Shown: positions 40,228 through 52,446, numbered from the stretch's first letter. The stretch is 64,000 bases of DNA from an uncultured Chloroflexia bacterium (GCA_963738475.1 CAVTWU010000029.1:65924-129923); one strand, 5' to 3'. Program-made: numbers and translations. Notes: generated by a model not told the origin, from the letters alone.

Positions 40228-42393
40228 TCACGAGGCGGAGCCGCCGCCTCCGCCCGCCGCCCGACGCGACTCCAGGTCCACGATCTCGCTCTGCGGGTAG
40301 GCGATCCGCGTGTGGTACATGCCCAGCAGCTGGCCGACGAACGCCTCGCGGATCAGCTCGAGGTCGCGCAGCGTCAGGTCGCACTCGTCGAACTGGTCGT
40401 CGTTGACGCGCTCTTCCATGATCCGGCTGACCATCGCGCGGATGGCGGGCTCGTCGCGCGAGGCGAGCGAGCGGACGGACGCCTCGACGCCATCGGCGAG
40501 CATGATCAGGGCGGCTTCCCGTGTCTGGGGCTTCGGGCCGGCGTGGCGGAACTTGCGCTCATCCACGGCCGCCGCGGCCTTGGCGCCCTCGGCCGTGCCG
40601 GCGCCGCCATACGGCGCCGCCGCCAGGTCCTTCGCCCGCGCGTAGAAGTAGCCCATGATCGCCGTCCCGTGGTGCTGCGGGATGTAGGCGATGAGGGCCT
40701 TGGGCAGCTTGGCCTTGTAGGCGAAGTCGATGCCGTCGGCGACGTGCTGCTTGACGACCTGGGCGCTGACCTCGGGGTCGAGCTCATCGTGGATGTTCTC
40801 GCCGCCGGCCTGGTTCTCGATGAACGCGAGCGGGTTCGCGAGCTTGCCGACGTCGTGGTAGTAGGCCGCGACACGGGTCACCAGCGGGTCGCCGCCGATC
40901 GCCTCGGCGGCGCGCTCGGCGAGGTTGCCCGACCATCAGCGAGTGGTGATAGGTCCCGGGCGTCTCGACCAGGAGCCGGCGCAGCAGCGGCTGCGACGGG
41001 TTCGCCAGCTCCAGGAGCTGGAAGACCGTGAGGATGCCGAAGACGGAACCGAGGACGGCGAACAGCCCGACCGCCGCCACGCCCGACCCGGCCGCGCTGG
41101 CCGCCGAGGCGAACCACAGTTCCAGCAGGCCCTGGATGTCGCGCGTCACCCAGCAGCGAGAAGACGGTGACGACCATCGCGTTGCACGATGAACACGGCC
41201 ACCGCGGCCTGGACGAAGACCTGCAGTCGGTCGCCCTTGCGGACGGCGATGATGCCGGCGACGCCGCCCAGGAACGTGTAGGTCGCGAACTCGAGCGAGC
41301 CGCCGTTCACCGCGCCACCGATGATCGCGATGATCGCGATGACGATCGTGGCGAGGGACGCGTCCAGCAGGATCGCCAGGAGCATGCCGATGGCGGCGGT
41401 CGGCAGGAAGAACTGGAGGATCGACCGGCCGGCCGTGACCTTCAGGGCGAGCGTCGCCCCGACGACCAGCACGCCGATCAGGAACAGGACGTTGTCGCGG
41501 TGCCAGAGGCCCGGTCGGAACCGCCAGATCCAGGCGAGCAGCATGCCGACCACCAGGAGCGACAACATGAACCAGCCGACGAAGACGTTCGGGCTGGGAC
41601 CTGCCACGCCCAGGCCGAGCGCGTCGATCTTCTCGATGTCCGCGGCCGTCAGCAGCGTCCCGTTCCGGACGATGACCTCGCGCTGGGCGATCTCGACCAC
41701 GATCGGCGCGACGGCGGCCTCGGCTCGATCCTCTGCCTGATCCGTGAGGAGCTGGCTGAACGACGAGTTCGGGACGACCAGGTCCCGGACCAGTTCCGCG
41801 GCGAGCATCCGCTGAGCGGCATCGAGGCCACCGGCCATCAGCCCGGTCAGCCGCGTCTTGGTGGCGGCGACTTCGGTGTCCAGCAGCTCCGTGCGCAGGA
41901 TCCCGTCGAGGACGCGAGCCGCCTCGGCTCGAACGGCCGCCCAGCCGTCGCCGTCGAGGCCCGCCAGCGTCGTGCTGGACGCCTCCGTGAGCGACGGCAT
42001 GACGGTCGCCAGGAGCACCGCACGCTCCTCCGGCGTCATGTCGGCGGCGTAGAGCGTGTCGATCGGCGAGACCTTGCGCTCGAACGCGAGGGCCTGTTCG
42101 GCCGCGATCGCGATCGCCTTCTCGCTCGTGAAGTCGTACTGCGGATCGACGCCCGCTCGAGCCTCGGCGCGGGCGGCGGCGGTCTGGACGTCGCTCTCGA
42201 ACTCGATCGCGGTCGGCGCGACGATGTCGGTCGGGGCGATATCGCCGACGGCCAGGGTCGTCGTCTCCTTGGGCAGGAAGTCGGCGCCGAGGATCGCGGT
42301 CATGGTCAGGACCAGGATCACGGACGCGATGGCGAGCCGCGTCGCATCGCTTCGCGTGAAGCGGGAGATCGAGGCCGCCCGGCTGGTCAGCAT
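40228..42393 (-). CDS. 7TM-HD phosphohydrolase (PgpH/YqfF-like cyclic-di-AMP phosphodiesterase), frameshifted
   Basis: Extracellular domain plus TM helices, PGTYHHSLMV, YYHDVGK, FIENQ, IPQHHGT, GPKPQTRE, LADGVEA. Confidence 0.9.
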
Positions 42394-42985: not shown

Positions 42986-43171
42986 TCAGCCGACCTGCGT
43001 TCGGGCGTTCTTCTTGCGCTTGGCTTCCTTGCGCTTGCGCTTCACAGAGGGCTTCTCGTAGTGCTCGCGTCGGCGAGCTTCGGCGAGGATGCCGCTCTGC
43101 TGGATCTTCTTGTTGAAGCGACGCAGGGCGCTTTCGAACGTCTCGTTCTCACCCACTCGGACTTCTGCCAA
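42986..43171 (-). CDS. rpsU: 30S ribosomal protein S21
   Basis: [31 protein letters not shown]; TTG start behind a GGAGGTG RBS. Confidence 0.96.
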
Positions 43172-43274
43172 TCCCGGTTCACCTCCCCAGGCCTGGGGTC
43201 GTGTCTGTTCGCGTCGGGCTCGCGGCCAACCGGCCCGTGACGCCACTCAGGCGGTTCCCCACCAGAGCCGGCGG

Positions 43275-43303
43275 AGCATACCCCGAGGTGCAGGGTCGGT
43301 CAA
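43275..43303 (-). promoter_or_regulatory. Sigma70-type promoter for rpsU
   Basis: Minus strand TTGACC (43303-43298), 17-bp spacer, TATGCT (43280-43275). Confidence 0.75.
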
Positions 43304-43359: not shown

Positions 43360-43698
43360 TCAGCCGGGAAGCTGCTGGCCGAGCACGAAGATCCAGTACG
43401 CGTCCAGCACGACGACGACCGCCCAGAACCCGATGATCAGCGTCGGGCGCCGGAGGAAGCACTTGCTCCACGACACGCCGAGCGTGATCGAGCGGGCATA
43501 GAGCGCGATCGCGACGATCGCGACGATCAGCACGAACCAGGCTGGTCCGACCGCCCAGGCGATCAGCCCGATGGTGCCCATCCGGCAGAACGTGAACGCG
43601 AGCCGCTCGTACTTCTCGGGGCGGCTCAGGGGCGGCCGGACGTACGACCCGGGGCCGACGACCCCCGGGGTCAGCGACTCGCCATGCAGACTCGTCAT
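43360..43698 (-). CDS. Small membrane protein (about 3 TM), last gene of the radical SAM operon
   Basis: ATG overlaps the radical SAM stop; FTFCRMGTIGLIAW and WSKCFLRRP segments. Confidence 0.75.
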   Translation of the reverse strand: MTSLHGESLTPGVVGPGSYVRPPLSRPEKYERLAFTFCRMGTIGLIAWAVGPAWFVLIVAIVAIALYARSITLGVSWSKCFLRRPTLIIGFWAVVVVLDAYWIFVLGQQLPG

Positions 43699-45278
43699 CG
43701 ATGGTCCCCCGATGCCATCGCCGGGCTGGACGCCGGGACGGCGTCCAGAGCCACCAACCGACCCGCGGGCACCATCCCGGCCGATGTGCGCCTGCGGAGT
43801 TCTCCGAAGACCTGTCGCGCACAGAACGGGATCCGGACGGGGTTCCGCTCCCCGTCGGTGGAGCCCACGTGCACGCAGCACTGCTGCAGCCGTTCGACGT
43901 TGAGCGTCCACGGATCCATGAACGTCTTGATCGAGACGCGCTTGACCCGCAGGGCGATCTCGTCGAGCGGAGCGCTGCCCCGGTTCGTCAACCACCGGCC
44001 CAGGCCCTTGATGAACCCCGAGACGCCCAGGTCGCAGACCTCGCAGATGTCCAGGAGGTAGTCGATGACCTCTCGACGACTGACCATGGCTGTCTCCGAC
44101 AGAAGGCCCGTGAGTGACTCCCACAGGGCATCGTCCGGGGCGAGGCGATTGCCGAAGACCGCCATCCGCTCCTTGAGCCGATCCCGCCCGATGAGCTGGA
44201 CGATGGACCGATGCGACCCGTCGTCACCGCGGATGAAGTAGGTCAGCGACGAGCAATCCGGGTGACTGCATGGCAAGGCGATGAAGTCGTCCGGACCGAC
44301 TCGACCCTCCGTCTGCGCGCCGAGGCGACGGATGGTCCCGGTCGTCGTCGCCCGGGCCATCGGATCGACCGGGTTGGCCCGCCCGGCGGTGAACATCGGC
44401 TGGATGGCGACCCCGGCGATGTAATCGGTCGCGAAGGCATGATCGACGACGGCCCCCACCTCGTCGTCGTTGACCCCCGTGGCAACGGCCATCGCCAAGG
44501 TCGTGAAGATCCGCTCCCCGGTGAGGCGCCTGATCGCCTCCGCCTTCATCTCACGCAGATCCTCACCGCGGTGGAACAGGTGGGTCTCGAGGCGGAAGCC
44601 GTCGAACTGGAGGTACACCTCGACACGGTCCCGCAACCGCGCCAGGTCCGCCAGGAATCGGTCGTCGCGGACGATCCGGATCCCATTCGTGTTGAGCACG
44701 ACCCGGGTGACCTTGCGCTCCACGGCGGCCTCCAGGATCTGGACGATCTCCGGATGCACGGTCGGCTCACCGCCGGACAGCATCAGCGCGTCGACGTGGC
44801 CACCCTCGCGCTCGATCGCCGTGTCGAGCGATCGCAGGATGTGCGGCAGTCGGGCGTGACGGTTGTTCCCCGGTCCGCTGTCGGCGAAGCAGGTGGGGCA
44901 ATGCAGGTTGCAGTTCTGGGTGACGTCGAGCAGCAGGATGCAGCTGTGCTGGGTCTGCAGGTCGCCCAGGCCGTCGAGGTACCCCATCGGGATGGGCCTG
45001 ACATTGTCGGGAACGTCCGGCGTGATCTCGCGAGTGGGGATCCGCCAGTCCTGCAGACCCTGCCAGAGGGCGTAGTCCTCCTCGTACAGGCTCACCACCT
45101 CACCGTGGCCGCGCTGGCAGTGGCGGCGCAGGTAGACGGCGCCATCCATGGCCACCAGGTTCCCCTGGAGGACGTCGACCTCGTAGTCGATCTCGCGATC
45201 CGGGTCGTCGCTGAAGCACCGTCCGCAGATCGTCAGGACCATCCGGAGAGGCAGGTACGGCCGGAGGGCGAGCGTCAT
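43695..45278 (-). CDS. Radical SAM enzyme of the Tes/GDGT-MAS (MJ0619)-like family
   Basis: Intact 527 aa. N-terminal CGRC...HCQRGHG; CNLHCPTC; SGGEPTVHP; NTNG; VYLQFDG; PCSHPDC; C-terminal DPWTLNVERLQQCCVH...RIPFC. Confidence 0.8.
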   Translation of the reverse strand: MTLALRPYLPLRMVLTICGRCFSDDPDREIDYEVDVLQGNLVAMDGAVYLRRHCQRGHGEVVSLYEEDYALWQGLQDWRIPTREITPDVPDNVRPIPMGYLDGLGDLQTQHSCILLLDVTQNCNLHCPTCFADSGPGNNRHARLPHILRSLDTAIEREGGHVDALMLSGGEPTVHPEIVQILEAAVERKVTRVVLNTNGIRIVRDDRFLADLARLRDRVEVYLQFDGFRLETHLFHRGEDLREMKAEAIRRLTGERIFTTLAMAVATGVNDDEVGAVVDHAFATDYIAGVAIQPMFTAGRANPVDPMARATTTGTIRRLGAQTEGRVGPDDFIALPCSHPDCSSLTYFIRGDDGSHRSIVQLIGRDRLKERMAVFGNRLAPDDALWESLTGLLSETAMVSRREVIDYLLDICEVCDLGVSGFIKGLGRWLTNRGSAPLDEIALRVKRVSIKTFMDPWTLNVERLQQCCVHVGSTDGERNPVRIPFCARQVFGELRRRTSAGMVPAGRLVALDAVPASSPAMASGDHR

Positions 45279-45793
45279 GTCGACGCCGTGAATGGCAGGC
45301 AGAGACCGGCGACCCCGACGAGCAGGATGATCGGGATGGCCATGAGGATCACCACGGCCCGTGCCGACCGTTCCGGGTCAGGACGACCGCGGCGGATGAT
45401 CAGCACCGAGATGATCACGGTCAGCCCGAGCGCGAACGTGAGCACCCCAAGCAGGACAGGGCCCATCCCGTACTGGAACGCCCGCCCGAGGTAGATGACC
45501 GCGAACACGAGCCAGGTGATGCCATACGCCAGCAGGACGATGTTGCGGGCACGGGTCCGCACCGGGCCGAACCGCTGTCGCTCGGCCTCGTGCTCACCCG
45601 AGATGCGGATCGCCTCGTCGACCTCACCCGCGTCGTAGCCTGCCTGGAGCGCAGCCGAGCGCAGCGCTTCGATCGTGAACCGATCGCGCTCCTTGTCAAA
45701 GTGGCTGACCAACGTCAGCTGACGCCACGCCGCATTCGCATGGGGTGGGGCCTGGCGGGCGGCGGGAGCGGGATCCCTCGGCGATCCATCCAT
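45275..45793 (-). CDS. Membrane protein, paralog A (N-terminal helical domain, 3 TM, C-terminal GLC)
   Basis: GGAGGTGA RBS; FTIEALRSAALQAGYDAGEV; ends LLVGVAGLCLPFTAST; stop overlaps the radical SAM ATG. Confidence 0.75.
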   Translation of the reverse strand: MDGSPRDPAPAARQAPPHANAAWRQLTLVSHFDKERDRFTIEALRSAALQAGYDAGEVDEAIRISGEHEAERQRFGPVRTRARNIVLLAYGITWLVFAVIYLGRAFQYGMGPVLLGVLTFALGLTVIISVLIIRRGRPDPERSARAVVILMAIPIILLVGVAGLCLPFTAST

Positions 45794-45825
45794 GTATCAC
45801 CTCCTGACGTGCGCGCGACTGGCCG

Positions 45826-46284
45826 TCATCCGCGGCTGGAGCTGAGGCCAGCGACGCACAGGCCACTGAGCCCGACGAAGATGACCACGGAGATCGCGAA
45901 GGCGATCGCCACGGACGCGCACCCGTTATCGCGGGTCGGCGCCGAAGCGAGTCGATACAGGGAGTACAGGCCACCCGCGACCATCGCGACGGCATAGAGG
46001 GGCAGGATGAGAGGGGCCCCAGACCCCCACGAGGCGGCGGCGAGGGCCAGCAGGATGGCTGGGGCGTATGCGGTGAAGACGACGAACATCAGGAGCCCGG
46101 ACGCCACCCGGGTCCCGGTGTCCGCGGTCGGCGGACGTTGGCCCGCGTCGTAGGCCGACCAGGCGGCAGCGATCTCCGCCTGATCATGGCCGCTGGCTGC
46201 CAGCGAAGCGGTGATCGCCTCGCGCGTGAAGTGGGCATCGTGGTCCGCGATGTACCGGAGGGCCGTCTCGTCGGGCGTGCTCAT
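45826..46284 (-). CDS. Membrane protein, paralog B (N-terminal helical domain, 3 TM, C-terminal GLC)
   Basis: ATG overlaps the Lgt-like stop; FTREAITASLAASGHDQAEI; ends IFVGLSGLCVAGLSSSRG. Confidence 0.75.
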   Translation of the reverse strand: MSTPDETALRYIADHDAHFTREAITASLAASGHDQAEIAAAWSAYDAGQRPPTADTGTRVASGLLMFVVFTAYAPAILLALAAASWGSGAPLILPLYAVAMVAGGLYSLYRLASAPTRDNGCASVAIAFAISVVIFVGLSGLCVAGLSSSRG

Positions 46285-47102
46285 GGCTGGACCTCGATGA
46301 AGCCGTGAGGCGGCGGGGCGGCGGGGATCCGATAGGCGTCCCGCTGGATCTGCCGCAGGAAGTGGATGACGAGCAGGCCGACCATCGGGATGAGGACCCA
46401 CTGCGGTCCGGTCAGGCCCAGCGCCTGCGGCTCATTGCCGCGCACGAACTCGACCAGGAACCGGAACGTCCCGGCGGCCAGGAGGTACAGCTTCAACCCA
46501 TCGCCGGGCACGGGCACGCGCTCGCGATAGCGGATGATCAGGGCGATCGCCACGAGGTTGAACCCGATCTCATACAGCATCGACGGATGCATCGCCACGT
46601 CACATCCGGGGCACCGAGCGAATGCGGCGGCGACCTCCGGGCCGACGCTGATCCCCCATGGCAGCGTCGTCGGTGTCCCGAGCGGTAGCTCCGAGAAGAA
46701 GCAGCCGATCCGCCCGATGACCGTCGCGACAGGGATCGCCAGGAGATAGCAGTCGCCTGTCGAGCGGGTATAGCCGAAGGCCCGCTTCGTCAGGGCGATC
46801 GCGATGTAGCCACCGGCCAACGCGCCGAGGATGCTCTTGCCGCTGCGCTCGATGACTTCGCTGAATGGGCGGTCGGCGAGCGCGCCATAGACCTCGAGGT
46901 GCTCCCAGGACGTGATGACGCGAGCCCCGATCACGCCCCCGAGGACGGCGGCGAGTGAGATCCAGAGGATCGGCCCGTCGAGCCAGCGCCGTCTGCGTAA
47001 CTCGCGGTAGTAGATCCCGAGGCCGACCGACAGCGCGATGACCGTGAACGCGTCGTGCGTCATCACGGTCAGAGGACCCCACTCGAACAGGATCGGGTGC
47101 AT
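46281..47102 (-). CDS. Prolipoprotein diacylglyceryl transferase (Lgt)-family paralog
   Basis: MHPILF N-terminus, GGVIGAR, GRIGCF, TTLPWG, HPSMLYE, RFLVEFVR; the HGG signature is replaced by ILGA. Confidence 0.85.
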   Translation of the reverse strand: MHPILFEWGPLTVMTHDAFTVIALSVGLGIYYRELRRRRWLDGPILWISLAAVLGGVIGARVITSWEHLEVYGALADRPFSEVIERSGKSILGALAGGYIAIALTKRAFGYTRSTGDCYLLAIPVATVIGRIGCFFSELPLGTPTTLPWGISVGPEVAAAFARCPGCDVAMHPSMLYEIGFNLVAIALIIRYRERVPVPGDGLKLYLLAAGTFRFLVEFVRGNEPQALGLTGPQWVLIPMVGLLVIHFLRQIQRDAYRIPAAPPPHGFIEVQP

Positions 47103-47215
47103 GGACGCCACCCAACTTGCCGGGACATCGGAGGATCCAGCGCCCCCTCATGAAGGACGCGTCGTTCGTCCGGATGGTACGCCCCGGCGCAACAGCTGAG
47201 GCTTATCCTGTATCC

Positions 47216-48856
47216 GTGTCCGAGACCCTTCTGGGCCTGCTCGACGAAGCCGTGTCGCGGTACGGCGACAAGCCCGCGCTGAGCCTGCGCGCGGACGATG
47301 GCTCGACCAGCGACTGGAGCTTCCGCGAGCTCGAGCGACGAGGGCGCCTCGCCGCCTGGCGCCTGCGGGCCCTCGGCCTGGAACCCGGCGACCGCGTCCT
47401 GACCTGGTCCCCGTCCATGCCGGAACTGGCGGCGGCCTACTTCGGGGCCATGCGTGCGCGCCTGATCTACGTGCCGCTGGACCTGCGCATGTCGACCGAG
47501 GCCGTCGAGGCGATCGTCCGCACGAGCGAGTCGCGCCACCTGATCCTGGGCACCGGACGCGACGCGCCGGACCCGCGCGAAGCTCGACTCGAACACTTCC
47601 CCACGACGACGCTCGAGGCCCTGTGCGCCGAACCCGCCGACGACGACCCGCTCTTCCCGCCCGACTGGGAGGCGCACCAGGCCGCCTGGGAGTCGCCGAC
47701 ACCCGACGAGATCTTCCAGCTCGTCTTCACGTCCGGCACGACCGGCACGCCGAAGGGCGTGATGCTCGCCCACGACAACCTGCTGGCCTCGATCGAGTCC
47801 TTCCACGCGGTCATGCCGCACCTGGAGCATCGGATCGTGTCGCTGCTGCCCCTGTCGCACCTGCTCGAGCAGGCGGTCGGGCTGTTCTACGCGCTGAGCG
47901 TCGGGGCCGACGTCCTGTACGTCCGCAGCCGCAACCCACGCGTCATCTTCGATGCCCTGCGCGACCACGAGGTCACCTCGATGGTCGTGGTGCCGCAGGT
48001 CCTGGACCTGTTCTGGAGCGCCATCACGCGCGAGGTCGAGAAGCGCGGGAAGACCGCGTCGTTCGATCGCCTTCGGGGGATCGCCCGTCATCTCCCGATG
48101 GCGATCCGGCGGATGCTGTTCGGCAGCGTCCACAAGCAGATCGGCGGGCACCTGCGCCTGTTCGTGTCGTCCGGGGCGTTCCTGCCGCCGGCGCTGCAGC
48201 AGGGCTGGGAGGACCTCGGCGTCATCGTCATGCAGGGCTACGGCGCCACGGAGACCGGGACCGGCAGCTGCACGACGCTGGACGATCACGGCCTCGGGAC
48301 GGTGGGGCGGCCACCGGCCGGGATCCAGATGCGCCTCGCCGAGGATGGCGAAGTCCAGTTCAAGGGCCGGCCGGTGTTCAAGGGCTACTGGCGGAACCCC
48401 GAAGCGACGGCCGCCGCCTTCACCGAGGACGGCTGGTACCACACCGGCGACATCGGCCACCTCGACGACGAGGGCCGCCTGATCCTGTCGGGCCGGATGA
48501 AGGACATCATCGTCCTGCCGAACGGCTTCAACGTCTATCCCGAGGATCTCGAGAACGCCCTCCGCATCGCCGGCATCCGCGACTCGGTCGTGCTCGAGAC
48601 GAAGCCCGGTCGCATCGAGGCCATCGTGCTCGCCGGCACGACGCTCGGCGCCACGCCCGACCCGGCCGAGATCCGCGCGCGACTCGATGCCGCCGTGAAG
48701 GCCGCCAACGCGACGCTGGGACCGAACCAGCGGATCGCCGGCTGGCGCCTGTGGCCCGAGGACGACTTCCCGCGCACCCACACGCTCAAGGTGAAGCGCC
48801 CGCTCGTGCGCGCCTGGGCCGACGTCGAGGCGGCGCTGCCCGTCCAGGCCTCGTAG
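47216..48856 (+). CDS. Long-chain acyl-CoA ligase (AMP-binding)
   Basis: FTSGTTGTPKGV, LPLSHLLE, QGYGATE, GWYHTGDIG, GRMKDII, NVYPEDLE; GTG start six nt after TATCCT. Confidence 0.9.
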   Translation: MSETLLGLLDEAVSRYGDKPALSLRADDGSTSDWSFRELERRGRLAAWRLRALGLEPGDRVLTWSPSMPELAAAYFGAMRARLIYVPLDLRMSTEAVEAIVRTSESRHLILGTGRDAPDPREARLEHFPTTTLEALCAEPADDDPLFPPDWEAHQAAWESPTPDEIFQLVFTSGTTGTPKGVMLAHDNLLASIESFHAVMPHLEHRIVSLLPLSHLLEQAVGLFYALSVGADVLYVRSRNPRVIFDALRDHEVTSMVVVPQVLDLFWSAITREVEKRGKTASFDRLRGIARHLPMAIRRMLFGSVHKQIGGHLRLFVSSGAFLPPALQQGWEDLGVIVMQGYGATETGTGSCTTLDDHGLGTVGRPPAGIQMRLAEDGEVQFKGRPVFKGYWRNPEATAAAFTEDGWYHTGDIGHLDDEGRLILSGRMKDIIVLPNGFNVYPEDLENALRIAGIRDSVVLETKPGRIEAIVLAGTTLGATPDPAEIRARLDAAVKAANATLGPNQRIAGWRLWPEDDFPRTHTLKVKRPLVRAWADVEAALPVQAS

Positions 48857-48914: not shown

Positions 48915-49478
48915 CTAGCCCGGGACCGGGTACCCCACGCCGAGCGTCTCGAGCGCGGCCTGGATCTCGGCCGAGCCCGGATCGTTGGACGCCGCCGCCG
49001 GCTGCCACGCGTGATAGACGACCGTCGTCCCGACCTGGCGGATCGTGTGGACCGTGCCCTGCGGCGACTGGACCCGGCCCGGACCGGTCGCCAGGTAGGC
49101 CTGCTGTTCGGCGGCGGCCATGGCGGCCTGCGACGAGTCGATGAACTCGTAGACCACGATGTAGCCGCCGTTCGGATCCGCCGGCAGCGTGACCTGGTAC
49201 ACGGCCCGCGGCGCCGAGGCCAGCATCGCCGACTCCGGCGGCCGGTACGGCGAGATCGTGTCGGTCAGGATGAGGTTCCTGGCTCCCGAGCGCCTCGGCG
49301 ATCTGCCCGCGCGTCCCGATGACCGCCGGCGAGACCGTCCGATCCGGCCCGACCGAGCCCACCGGATACGTGACCGACGCCCCGTCGCTCGGCGAACACG
49401 CCGCGACGGCCCCGATGAGCGCGACGAGCAGCGACGCCGCCGAGCGCCGACCGAGCCCGCCCGTCCGACGGGCCTCAT
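48915..49478 (-). CDS. Hypothetical lipoprotein, frameshift near 49285
   Basis: LLVALIGAVAAC lipobox-like; ATG overlaps the HIT stop. Confidence 0.6.
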   Translation of the reverse strand: MRPVGRAGSVGARRRRCSSRSSGPSRRVRRATGRRSRIRWARSGRIGRSRRRSSGRAGRSPRRSGARNLILTDTISPYRPPESAMLASAPRAVYQVTLPADPNGGYIVVYEFIDSSQAAMAAAEQQAYLATGPGRVQSPQGTVHTIRQVGTTVVYHAWQPAAASNDPGSAEIQAALETLGVGYPVPG

Positions 49479-49843
49479 CCGGGCGGCCAGCCCATCTGGC
49501 GCCCGCCGAGCAGGTGCACATGGAGGTGATGGACGCTCTGACCGCCCTCGTCGCCGACGTTCGTGACGAGCCGGTAGCCGGCATCCGCGACACCCTCGGT
49601 GCGGGCCAGATCCGCGGCCACAGCGAACAGTCGCCCGAGCAGGGCGCCGTGGGCCTCGCCGAGCTCCGCCGCCGAGCGGATGTGCTCACGCGGGACGATC
49701 AGGACGTGGGTCGGCGCGTCGGGCGCGATGTCACGGAAGGCCACGACGAGGTCGTCCTCGTGGAGCCTCGTGGACGGCAGGTCGCCCGCGACGATCCGAC
49801 AGAACAGGCAGGCTGCGGCGTCCGACACGGGAACCTCCGTCAC
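49475..49843 (-). CDS. HIT (histidine triad) nucleotide-binding protein
   Basis: CLFCRIV, FRDIAP.AP.HVLIVP, GGQSVHHLHVHLLGGRQMGWPPG. Confidence 0.95.
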   Translation of the reverse strand: MTEVPVSDAAACLFCRIVAGDLPSTRLHEDDLVVAFRDIAPDAPTHVLIVPREHIRSAAELGEAHGALLGRLFAVAADLARTEGVADAGYRLVTNVGDEGGQSVHHLHVHLLGGRQMGWPPG

Positions 49844-50302
49844 CACAGGGTCGGCTTGGTGCTCATCAGGAACCCGATCGTCCCGACGAGTCCAGCCATC
49901 AGGTACGACACGTAGCGCTGGCGCTTGGCTCGCTCCTTCCAGACCCGGTCGTCGGCCGCCGCCGTGACGCCGACCAGGCGCCGCAGGTTCGGGCGCTGGA
50001 TGAAGAACGCCAGGCCGAGGTTCGCGAAGTAGATCGTCAGCGCGAGGACCAGCCACGGCTGCTGGAACATGCCCGAGCCGAGGGACGCCACGAGGCCGAG
50101 CCCGGTGATCGCCAGGCCGGCCCCGATGACGATCGTGCCGTGCGTCTGGGCGTACAGCAGCCCCTGGACGACGCGGCTGTCCGAGTCCACCGTGGCCCGC
50201 CGGGTCCGCAGCGTGAACGGCAGCAGGATGGACGGCAGCACCAGGCAGATCGCGAGCGCGATGTGGGCGACGAGCAGGATCGGGAAAGAGGTTCGAGGGC
50301 AT
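49840..50302 (-). CDS. DUF2269-like 4-TM membrane protein, frameshift near 50282
   Basis: LVAHIALAI, ITGLGLV, PWLVLAL, C-terminal LMSTKP. Confidence 0.65.
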
Positions 50303-50342: not shown

Positions 50343-51329
50343 TCAGGCCGGCGCGGCGCGCCTCGAGCGCGACCCAGTCACCCTCGGCCGTCCGTGCCGT
50401 GACGGTCAGCCCGGCCGCCTCGAACGCGGCGACGACGGCCGCCTCGCGGTCGTGGAAGATCCCCGACGCGAGCAGGATCCCGCCCGGACGCAGCTCGTCC
50501 CGCAGCGGCACGGCGAGCGGGACCAGCACGCCGGCGATCAGGTTGGCGAGGACGACATCGAAGCCGGGCTCGCCGCTCGGGCAGGCTGCCCTCGCGGGCC
50601 CGGACGCTCCGGACGAGCCGGTTCCGTCGAGCGTTGGCGAGGGTCGCCTCCTCGGCGACCGGGTCCGTGTCCACCCCGAACGCGGAGGCCGCCCCGAGCT
50701 TGACCGCCGCGATGGCCAGGATCCCGGAACCGCAGCCGACGTCCAGGACGCGCGTCCCGGCCAGCTCGCCCCGGTCCGCGACGACCTCCAGGGCCGCCAG
50801 GCACAGCCGGGTCGTGGGATGCAGGCCGGTCCCGAACGCCATGCCCGGGTCCAGCGCCAGGACCACGTCGTCCGGCTGTCGACGATGCCGCCGCCACGTG
50901 GGCCGGATGACGATCCGCCGTCCGACACGCAGGACCGGGAAGTAGTCCTTCCAGGCATCGGCCCAGTCGGACTCGGCGACGAGGCGCGTCTGGAGCTCGC
51001 CGATCGGTCGCAACCCGAACGCCTGCAGGTGCCCGAGGGCCGCGGTCACATCGGCCACGACCGCCTCGGCGGCGGCGGGGTCGCCGGCCGGTACATACGC
51101 CCGGACCGTCGCCGGCCGGGTCGGGTCCACGCGCGCGCCGAGGCCCTCATCGACGAGGTCGAACGCCGGCTCCACGGACGTGCCCGGCCGGCGCGTGGCG
51201 GCCCAGGATCTCGCTGACCGCCTCGACCGCCTCCACGTCCGCCACGACCGAGAGTTCCAGCCACGCGCCCGTGGCCGCCGCCGGACTCCGCGTCGTGCCG
51301 ACGGCGCCCCCCTCAGCCGAGGGCGTCAC
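50343..51329 (-). CDS. prmA: Ribosomal protein L11 methyltransferase, frameshifted
   Basis: [53 protein letters not shown]; lies downstream of dnaJ. Confidence 0.92.
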
Positions 51330-52446
51330 GGACCTTGTCGAAGAAGCTCCCCGTCGCATGGGTGATCTCGCCGGACTCGTCCGCGTAGGCGGACAGCAGT
51401 TCCTTCTGGCGCTTCGTCAGCTTGGTCGGGACGACGACGTTGACCAGCACGTGCAGGTCGCCGCGCGATCCCGAACGGCGCAGGTGCGGGACGCCCTTGC
51501 CGCGCAGCCGGATCTCGGTCTCGGGCTGGGTGCCCGGCTTGATCTCGACCTCTTCGGTGCCGTCCACGGTCGGCACCATGATCCGCGTCCCGAGCGCGGC
51601 CTGGGCGATCGACACATCCGCCTCGAAGTACAGCTCCGTCCCGTCGCGCTTGAGGGTCTTGTGCTGGCGCGACGTGGACGGCCACGTACAGGCTGCCGGC
51701 CGGGCCACCGCGGGCCCCGACCTCGCCCTCGTTCGACAGGCGGATCTGGTGGCCCTCGTCGATGCCGGGCGGGATGGTCACGCGCAGCGTGCGTCGCTGC
51801 TCGGTGCGGCCCTCGCCCTTGCAGGTGGGGCAGGCCGACTCGATGATCTTGCCCTCGCCCTTGCAGCGCGGGCAGGCGCTGACGTTGACCATCTGGCCGA
51901 GCATCGTCTGGCGGACGCTGCGGATCTCGCCGCGGCCGTCGCACTGCGGGACAGGTGATCGGCTCCGCGCCCTCCTTCGCGCCACTCCCCTGGCAGGTGG
52001 CGCAGCGGAGCAGGACCGGGAACTCGATCTCCTTCTCGGTCCCGTTGACGGCCTCCTCGAAGGTCAGGCGCAGGTCGTAGCGCAGGTCCGCCCCGGGCTG
52101 CGGCCGGCCGCGACGGGCGGCACTCGCGCCACCGGCCCCGCCGAAGAAGGCATCGAAGATGTCGCTGAAGCCACCGAAGCCACCCTCGAAGCCGGCGCCG
52201 CCCGCGCCCGCCGGCGCCGTTGACGCCGGCCGCCCCGAACATGTCGTAGCGCTGGCGCTGCTGCGGATCCGACAGGACCTGGTAGGCCTGGTTGATCTCC
52301 TTGAACTTCTCCTGGGCCTCGGGCGTCGCGTTGACGTCCGGGTGCCACTGCTGGGCGAGCTTGCGGAAGGCGCGCTTCAGCTCGGCGTCGGACGCGCCGC
52401 GCTCGACGCCCAGGACCTCGTAGTAATCGCGTTCAGCGGTGGCCAT
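51313..52446 (-). CDS. dnaJ: Chaperone DnaJ, frameshifted
   Basis: [11 protein letters not shown] motif, G/F region, CxxCxGxG zinc repeats, [22 protein letters not shown]. Confidence 0.96.

Follow-up and report, generated by a model that had tools for sequence, protein, structure and literature searches.

In a 64,000-nucleotide stretch of DNA (the window; GCA_963738475.1 CAVTWU010000029.1:65924-129923, positions counted from its first letter; G+C ~71%) from a Limnocylindria-like soil Chloroflexota metagenome-assembled genome (MAG; 3.7 Mb, 30 contigs, completeness score 60%), we analysed a block of five genes encoding an Lgt-family paralogue (LgtP), two Cys-tailed membrane proteins (memA and memB), a Tes/GDGT-MAS-like radical S-adenosylmethionine (SAM) enzyme (rSAM) and a small membrane protein (small). 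We conclude with high confidence that the five act as one conserved functional unit, the form that a widespread three-part membrane module takes in Limnocylindria. The module is without a described counterpart, although its enzymes belong to known families, in each case as a new subfamily; the original prediction knew of no characterised pathway that combines these activities, and we found no publication joining Lgt with Tes/GDGT-MAS in the literature searched. As to function, our leading explanation, which we hold tentatively, is that LgtP lipidates the Cys-proteins through a thioether while bound rSAM remodels the lipid tails.

Gene order, recurrence and surroundings of the module

The five open reading frames (ORFs) are co-oriented on the minus strand, and none is interrupted (lengths in amino acids, aa):

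46281-47102, minus strand: LgtP, 273 aa; alternative GTG start at 47111
45826-46284, minus strand: memA, 152-aa Cys-tailed membrane protein
45275-45793, minus strand: memB, 172-aa paralogue of memA
43695-45278, minus strand: rSAM, Tes/GDGT-MAS-like radical SAM enzyme, 527 aa
43360-43698, minus strand: small, 112-aa protein with three predicted transmembrane (TM) helices

Three junctions are ATGA start/stop overlaps (46281-46284, 45275-45278 and 43695-43698), exactly where the original prediction had placed them for five co-oriented genes; at the remaining one, memA stops at 45826 and memB starts at 45793, with AGGAGG (45800-45805) between them. Four-base overlaps are frequent in operons and are weak proof taken alone; strong evidence that these genes are more than chance neighbours comes from the conservation of their order in relatives. 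Across a sample of 80 Limnocylindria genome loci (rSAM identity 63-93%), LgtP lay upstream on the same strand in 63/63 relatives with at least 2.6 kb of upstream sequence, small directly followed rSAM in 77/77 relatives with at least 450 nt downstream, and one to three mem genes stood between LgtP and rSAM, also at loci where other genes took the place of the rpsU, HIT and AMP-binding flanks. Independent gene calls on relatives agreed with the order LgtP, Cys-protein(s), rSAM, small, and retained the 4-nt overlap between rSAM and small, which is translationally coupled to rSAM. The Cys-proteins, present at 1-3 copies per locus, evolve fast (median identity 34% vs. 64% for LgtP, 71% for rSAM and 72% for small).

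The module is patchily distributed. A Tes-like gene occurs in 37/301 Chloroflexota genomes, the window-type rSAM in only six of the 301 (the window and relatives at ~70% identity), with one sister at 47% besides, and two genomes of the same genus are without the module. In a small presence/absence sample, LgtP occurred in each of the three rSAM-bearing Limnocylindria genomes that were checked (G000, G221 and G058), and the two same-genus genomes that lack rSAM had no PF01790 match in the LgtP score range. Six genomes were also checked among the Chloroflexota whose Tes-like locus is free of LGT, an Lgt-family gene, and none of the six holds an LgtP-type paralogue.

The association also holds in other genomes: an Lgt paralogue, a Tes-like rSAM and a Cys-containing membrane protein recur together across Chloroflexota classes and in other phyla, including as fusions. 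Elsewhere in the Chloroflexota we found the core triad at rSAM identities of 47%, 41%, 39% and 34%. The 47% locus (L087) encodes LgtP, an 85-aa two-TM protein ending in ..LFGTCISATQW, rSAM and a small homologue; in Ktedonobacteria, two loci (39-41%) encode LgtP, a Zn-ribbon/3-TM protein ending in ..GFIGCVVIVFSQPLF or ..VYSCFAALSPPPG, rSAM and an ArsP_1 permease; and the 34% locus (L098) encodes LgtP, a TM protein ending in ..LLWCFVVLFSYSGG and rSAM. On a tree, the LGT-linked rSAMs fall into three separate clades. Outside the phylum, Paenibacillus tarimensis carries a Zn-finger/TM protein ending in ..LFLSICGIILLSL, then an Lgt-family (LGT) gene, then rSAM. An ENA contig with GatD/GatE archaeal-type neighbours (L107; ERZ1758341, 7001-10174) has an rSAM gene together with a CGC membrane protein, a Cys-tailed protein of 88 aa with ..STGTCLGISYLGDR at its end and a PF01790 LGT, and a Patescibacteria MAG (L108, 8376-11569) and a related contig (L110, 7376-10248) carry rSAM, an ICMT-like methyltransferase, ArsP_1, an LGT gene and a protein with a memA/B-type N-domain. 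The closest named relative of the L107 rSAM is labelled Thermoplasmatota (P0334). The methyltransferase of L108 and L110 is of the ICMT/PEMT family, has a DUF4395 part and weakly matches protein-S-isoprenylcysteine O-methyltransferase, and the ArsP_1 permease of the same two loci carries TPFCSC.

Starting from diverse Tes-like sequences, a scan of metagenomes yielded 80 loci, 59 of which had an LGT gene, in every case on the rSAM strand, upstream in 51 and at a median gap of ~4 nt; among the 39 loci with a flank of 1.5 kb on each side, 36 had one. Many of these loci contain a 60-68-aa two-TM ORF directly after rSAM, ending in ..G(L/I)G(I)C-G-x3-5. Among loci of this type, rSAM identity between Tenacibaculum, Aequorivita, Flavobacterium and Psychroserpens is 87-92%, and Flavobacterium glycines has the order LGT, rSAM, 67-aa ORF. 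Two natural fusions (P0182, 733 aa; P0210, 671 aa) join an LGT domain, an HMPTM zinc ribbon and a radical SAM domain in a single polypeptide. Two further proteins (P0193 and P0223) have C-terminal extensions of ~200 aa.

The surroundings of the block comprise the following:

42986-43180: rpsU (PF01165), downstream of the block
43275-43303, minus strand: promoter-like site between small and rpsU, TTGACC-17-TATGCT, 9/12 matches, by consensus match only
47150-48856, plus strand, divergent: AMP-binding gene directly upstream of LgtP
48915-49478, minus strand: 187-aa ORF between the AMP-binding and HIT genes, without a Pfam match, conserved in relatives (tblastn, 48924-49286)
49475-49900: HIT gene, two genes beyond the AMP-binding gene

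The original prediction set the block between the HIT region and rpsU, which is roughly right: the rpsU side is correct (a YqeY-type gene also lies downstream), and on the HIT side the AMP-binding gene and another gene intervene. The promoter-like site marks a boundary and lies outside the module, and a terminator scan gave nothing convincing within or after the five-gene block. That the five ORFs are unbroken amid broken surroundings, as was first noticed, holds for the neighbourhood checked. Each of the five genes maps in one frame, and so does the AMP-binding gene against close relatives; against the same kind of reference a 7TM-HD (PgpH-like) gene at 40270-42393 shows three frame changes, and genes at 50350-52446 likewise switch frame. 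The frame-switching neighbours, the 60% completeness and an lsp that is also split in the source genome (G000 C28:674009-674420) together favour assembly indels over biology, and thus point to sequence errors and not to pseudogenes. The acyl-activating AMP-binding gene stands divergent and directly upstream of LgtP wherever the rpsU context persists; at other loci a 40%-identical AMP-binding copy lies upstream on the same strand, and one relative (L105, 10636-13167) has an AMP-binding/acyltransferase fusion just downstream. This gene may be a lipid-supply link to the module.

The two enzymes, the Cys-tailed proteins and the small protein

LgtP matches PF01790 at E=1.6e-30 (residues 6-250 of 276) and misses all NCBIfam Lgt cut-offs (53.7 bits vs. 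118.9, and 64.4 vs. 334; TIGR00544 and NF000778). It is a paralogue of a canonical Lgt encoded elsewhere in the source genome, which scores 195 bits on PF01790 vs. 107 for LgtP, and the genome also encodes Lsp; another Lgt paralogue of this genome (C15) has neither a Cys-tailed neighbour nor an rSAM beside it. The motifs of LgtP are as follows:

46749-46763, minus strand: STGDC
46701-46715, minus strand: GRIGC
46602-46613, minus strand: CPGC
46569-46589, minus strand: HPSMLYE
46440-46466, minus strand: FRFLVEFVR

A profile built from eleven LGTs that are linked to rSAM matches 5AZB, the E. coli Lgt, almost end to end (E=3.2e-28, residues 14-285). LgtP keeps the catalytic Arg/Glu network, which in Lgt serves to bind and activate phosphatidylglycerol and whose residues are among those that do not tolerate mutation in E. 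coli (PMC4728403), its R131, R214, E218 and R221 being the equivalents of R143, R239, E243 and R246. Across 48 partner LGTs the equivalents of R143 and R239 are present in 48/48, with E or D at the position of E243 and R or K at that of R246. The position of Asn146 is Cys in LgtP and in 47/48 partner LGTs. The acceptor side of LgtP is probably altered, with a new active-site Cys. A CPxC insertion in the predicted periplasmic head domain is specific to the window clade.

The rSAM sequence carries the following metal-site motifs:

45216-45227 (CGRC) and 45105-45122 (HCQRGH), minus strand: rubredoxin-like site, C18/C21/C54/H58
44889-44912 (CNLHCPTC), minus strand: radical SAM cluster, CX3CX2C, C123/C127/C130
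44253-44270 (CSHPDC) and 44034-44045 (CEVC), minus strand: extra Cys pairs
43908-43922 (FMDPW), 43869-43886 (QQCCVH) and 43815-43829 (PFCAR), minus strand: C-terminal cluster, M454, C467/C468 and C486, placed by alignment only

The ligands of the radical SAM cluster and of the rubredoxin-like site are invariant in 22 relatives. GDGT-MAS (7TOL) aligns with rSAM end to end (E=1.5e-33, residues 40-488), and a Foldseek comparison of the predicted rSAM model, which is of low confidence (mean pLDDT 59, pTM 0.68), with 7TOM gave E=9.8e-25 and TM-scores of 0.64/0.67 over 510 columns (range 0.64-0.68 for 7TOM/7TOL). All other radical SAM structures matched through the core only, at E=2e-7 or worse. The first identification of rSAM as Tes-like is therefore upheld, since 7TOM/7TOL is by far its best structural match. 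rSAM is a member of the Tes/GDGT-MAS superfamily and not a Tes orthologue. None of ten other bacterial Tes-like representatives reached the cut-off of the radical SAM (seleno)protein family TrsS, and a search of 14 control genomes with the Tes model NF045702 gave matches in all 14, through the generic radical SAM core.

The clusters of rSAM differ between clades. The N-terminal auxiliary [4Fe-4S] cluster of MJ0619 is ligated by C73, C77 and C80 (CX3CX2C) plus a His (PMC9433317). In our alignment the corresponding motif, GCPxDCGLC, is replaced by PMGYLDGLG in the window rSAM, L102, L087, P0123 and P0124; the other 11 Tes-like sequences in the alignment all have it. We had considered H111, C113, C337 and C342 as ligands of this cluster and rejected them, the real motif being the CX3CX2C (PMC9433317) that is missing in the window clade. 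The C-terminal cluster ligands are intact in the window clade; the rSAMs of Flavobacteriaceae (L128/L192-type), Paenibacillus (L106) and Patescibacteria (L108, L110) have SC, DC or EC in place of CC and PFE, PFD or PFS in place of PFC. With C-terminal ligands altered there and the N-terminal motif lost here, different LGT-linked clades have changed different clusters. The window rSAM has no in-frame selenocysteine codon, and selenocysteine in the rSAM of relatives was rejected as well, the TGA being the natural stop and the match running into the overlap with the next gene.

memA consists of an N-terminal helical domain, three TM helices and Cys143 (in GLSGLC, 45856-45873) followed by a 9-residue tail (..VGLSGLC143-VAGLSSSRG). 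memB ends in ..VGVAGLC165-LPFTAST, with Cys165 inside IPIILLVGVAGLC (45299-45337) and a 7-residue tail. Neither protein has a Pfam or NCBIfam match; both fall in a family that we defined from relatives by a hidden Markov model, and this family is confined to the present locus within the source genome. Its members are built from a ~45-residue three-helix N-domain and three TM helices, the third of which ends in a Cys in G-x-C context. The Cys is followed by 5-13 residues; a long form instead has a Pro-rich linker leading to a ~150-residue beta domain with an invariant Cys pair. The N-terminal helical domain has no relative in Pfam, NCBIfam or the PDB, and the predicted model of the long-form beta domain (L040, 6068-6970) has no significant PDB fold match (best E=0.019). 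Its weak fold hits (E of about 0.02 or more) are mostly LolA/LolB, LprG, RseB, VioE and EPDR1, which are lipid-binding half-barrels; we take this as a hint only.

Nearly all mem relatives conserve the Cys with which the last TM helix ends. Across the clusters as a whole the N-domain is replaced by a Zn-ribbon or lost and the tail ranges from 3 to ~160 residues, and the TM helix and the Cys are retained; the G-x-C at the end of the last TM helix (e.g. VAGLC, LSGLC, GLGIC) lies 3-13 residues from the C-terminus or precedes a 150-aa domain. Charged loops (positive-inside) in memB and the mem family place the N-terminus inside the cell and the Cys outside, and the Pro-rich linker and the beta domain with its invariant Cys pair in the long form likewise argue for an outside position. 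The Cys-proteins look like substrates of an Lgt-type enzyme: nothing in them is constant except a membrane helix whose outer end, the place where Lgt acts, bears a Cys.

The small protein has two invariant Cys, Cys38 (FTFC, 43585-43596) and Cys80 (SKCF, 43456-43467), which its charged loops place on the cytoplasmic side. It has no Pfam or NCBIfam match, and its family is found once in the source genome. A cut-down ArsP_1 permease was considered as its identity and rejected (hhalign probability 0.2%). Because the loss of the N-terminal cluster motif from rSAM coincides with the gain of small, this protein may conceivably replace the role of that cluster or dock the enzyme. What sets the window variant apart is its tandem three-TM Cys-proteins with a helical N-domain, its fourth conserved protein, the CPxC loop of LgtP and the absence of the N-terminal cluster motif from rSAM.

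Proposed lipidation with tail remodelling and its alternatives

Under the explanation that we favour, LgtP would move diacylglyceryl from phosphatidylglycerol to the Cys as a thioether, in the outer leaflet and through its Lgt-like Arg/Glu network. rSAM would sit on the cytoplasmic face, docked to LgtP and, in the window clade, also to small; we place it there because in the fusions rSAM directly follows the LGT domain, and both termini of E. coli Lgt are cytoplasmic. It would make a Tes-type C-C link at the tail ends of the attached lipid, or of a donor lipid held in or near LgtP, which would either close one lipid into a macrocycle or bridge it to an inner-leaflet lipid. Lipidation and tail coupling could come in either order, and the product would be a dedicated membrane protein with a tail-remodelled, possibly membrane-spanning lipid anchor. 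The lipids on which the two enzyme families act speak for this explanation. Tes acts on glycerophospholipids, including a substrate of the phosphatidylglycerol type, and binds ester-linked phosphatidic acid (PMC9433317, PMC13459092, PMC13274423), and canonical Lgt likewise draws on phosphatidylglycerol. A stronger version is rather unlikely, namely that a diacylglyceryl thioether is formed on a Cys next to the C-terminal end of a membrane helix, with its tails C-C coupled mutually or to the opposite leaflet, which would stitch the protein to both leaflets as a new kind of protein lipid anchor; a large share of the bacterial 'Tes homologues' now taken as brGDGT markers (brGDGTs, branched tetraether lipids) would then serve protein lipidation and not bulk lipid synthesis. 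The lipidation and cross-linking first proposed for this locus are partly supported: the genomic predictions stood, but rSAM is not a Tes orthologue and the Cys motif is not a canonical lipobox.

Several observations weigh against lipidation coupled to tail remodelling. First, an LGT gene is missing from the vicinity in 9/16 Chloroflexota loci with a Tes-like gene (L094, among the nine, spans just 3.9 kb). Second, the lipobox [LVI][ASTVI][GAS]C after an N-terminal signal peptide is absent in the neighbouring Cys-proteins, and one 70-aa candidate (L108) has its Cys tail predicted inside. Third, rSAM scores 175.4 bits against Tes (NF045702) and does not reach the cut-off of 450, its best curated NCBIfam match is TrsS (NF045646; 217.2 bits, where the cut-off of 490 is not reached either), and its identity to GDGT-MAS is 21-22%. 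Fourth, the position of His103 (HGGL motif), one of the residues essential in E. coli Lgt, whose functional roles have been described (PMC4728403), is Leu in LgtP and V, L, M, I, T or A in the 48 partners, never His, and Tyr235, retained in most partner LGTs, is Ala in the window clade. In the source genome the canonical Lgt itself carries Tyr in place of His103 (and Asn at the position of Asn146), so the loss of His103 is a weak argument in either direction. Finally, with rSAM in the cytoplasm and the Cys on the outer face, direct action on an attached lipid would need tails that reach across the membrane.

Synthesis of bulk lipids is the best of the alternatives, and we consider it unlikely. 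Here rSAM would couple the tails of ordinary phospholipids into membrane-spanning lipids, similar to diabolic acid or to brGDGTs (branched glycerol dialkyl glycerol tetraethers), or into macrocyclic lipids; LgtP would be a head-group or backbone transferase or a lipid-holding partner, and the Cys-proteins scaffolds or regulators. The Tes fold and cluster sites of rSAM fit this reading, as do the Limnocylindria habitats, soil and lakes, where the sources of brGDGTs are unsettled, and bacterial Tes homologues have been proposed as the brGDGT enzymes (PMC8941075, PMC11868695). Two Tes-like loci without an LGT partner (L109, L111) lie beside a class I methyltransferase and plsY, a set that may act on bulk lipids; they count for this alternative and against coupled lipidation. 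Bulk synthesis, however, gives no reason for a Cys-tailed membrane protein that is kept in nearly every cluster while its other features vary, and the module is patchy even inside one genus. A very conserved copy also occurs in aerobic Flavobacteriaceae, from which, to our knowledge, membrane-spanning or macrocyclic lipids of this kind have not been reported. Moreover, no Tes homologues were found in organisms known to produce diabolic acid (PMC13159169).

Less probable still is a lipopeptide made in the manner of ribosomally made, post-translationally modified peptides (RiPPs), with the Cys-proteins as precursors, rSAM as the maker of a C-C or C-S cross-link in the peptide, LgtP adding a lipid and the product either membrane-bound or released. 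Small, fast-evolving, multi-copy ORFs beside a radical SAM gene, with short post-Cys tails that recall core peptides, invite this comparison, and the ICMT-like methyltransferase and ArsP_1 permease of some relatives could tailor and export a product. However, rSAM has the lipid-binding architecture of Tes, and SPASM/twitch peptide maturases match it through the core only; the clusters examined showed neither a protease nor a typical RiPP recognition element; rSAM is cytoplasmic, the conserved Cys extracytoplasmic; and the 'precursors' of the window clade would be polytopic proteins of 150-300 aa. Very unlikely, lastly, is the handling of thiol-reactive metal(loid)s or of selenium/sulfur, with conserved Cys and the relatives' ArsP_1 permeases binding or transporting them: it would suit the many conserved Cys (CPGC and GRIGC of LgtP, C38/C80 of small, the Cys tails), the best NCBIfam match to TrsS, closer than to Tes, and the ArsP_1 permeases with TPFC(S/T)C after rSAM in Ktedonobacteria and Patescibacteria clusters, but the Limnocylindria module has no ArsP_1 and its small is unrelated to one, CPxC is confined to one clade, the gene neighbourhood of the block in the window contains no ars, mer or selenium genes, and no function of TrsS is described in the literature searched, where the name turned up in a table entry only.

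Significance and comparison with known systems

If lipidation by LgtP coupled to remodelling by rSAM is correct, the module would be a second, dedicated branch of bacterial protein lipidation, with a non-lipobox acceptor near the C-terminus and a transferase physically coupled to radical chemistry. In metagenomes, bacterial Tes homologues are taken as a sign of brGDGT producers, among them Chloroflexota (PMC11868695), and yet they do not track the known producers of membrane-spanning lipids (PMC13159169); a tight link between Tes-like genes, LgtP and Cys-proteins would change how counts of Tes genes are read as brGDGT markers. Archaea are currently held to have no Lgt homologues (PMC12462473), and the Lgt-family gene on the L107 contig would run counter to this if that contig is archaeal. 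The presence of the module in cultured Flavobacteriaceae, with the high rSAM identity across genera given above, and in Paenibacillus makes the hypothesis directly testable.

Each component has a characterised counterpart from which it departs. Lgt transfers diacylglyceryl from phosphatidylglycerol to a cysteine thiol. With the E. coli enzyme (5AZB/5AZC; PF01790, TIGR00544) LgtP shares the fold family and the expected thioether transfer to an outer-leaflet Cys; the acceptor of Lgt, however, is a signal peptide with a lipobox, whereas the presumed acceptor Cys of LgtP follows the last helix of a polytopic protein in a G-x-C context, and the LgtP gene, unlike that of Lgt, adjoins or is fused with a radical SAM enzyme. 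With Tes/GDGT-MAS (M. jannaschii MJ0619, 7TOL/7TOM; NF045702) rSAM shares the full-length four-domain fold, the C-x2-C...C-x3-H Zn-ribbon/rubredoxin-like site, the CX3CX2C and the ligands of the C-terminal [4Fe-4S] cluster including Met, which is labile in Tes, and it differs in its extra Cys pairs (CSHPDC and CEVC) and in the missing N-terminal cluster motif. Tes alone sufficed in Methanococcus maripaludis (PMC8941075), whereas the window rSAM has LgtP, the Cys-proteins and small as obligate partners.

The same overall architecture as that of rSAM is found in TrsS (NF045646). The nearest demonstrated bacterial chemistry is that of Mss, the membrane-spanning lipid synthase of Thermotoga, a radical SAM enzyme that joins fatty-acid tails (PMC13159169); it is, according to its authors, remotely related to Tes, it has not been reported with an Lgt partner or Cys-proteins, and we set it beside rSAM by description. 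Eukaryotic CaaX processing, which consists of Cys prenylation, tail removal and ICMT methylation and attaches a thioether lipid to a Cys shortly before the C-terminus, offers an analogy only, to which the ICMT-family gene of the L108 and L110 clusters adds: its enzymes are unrelated to those of the module, its lipid is prenyl and not diacylglyceryl, and, unlike the CaaX Cys, that of the module is predicted to be extracytoplasmic, in Limnocylindria within a module that has no ICMT gene.

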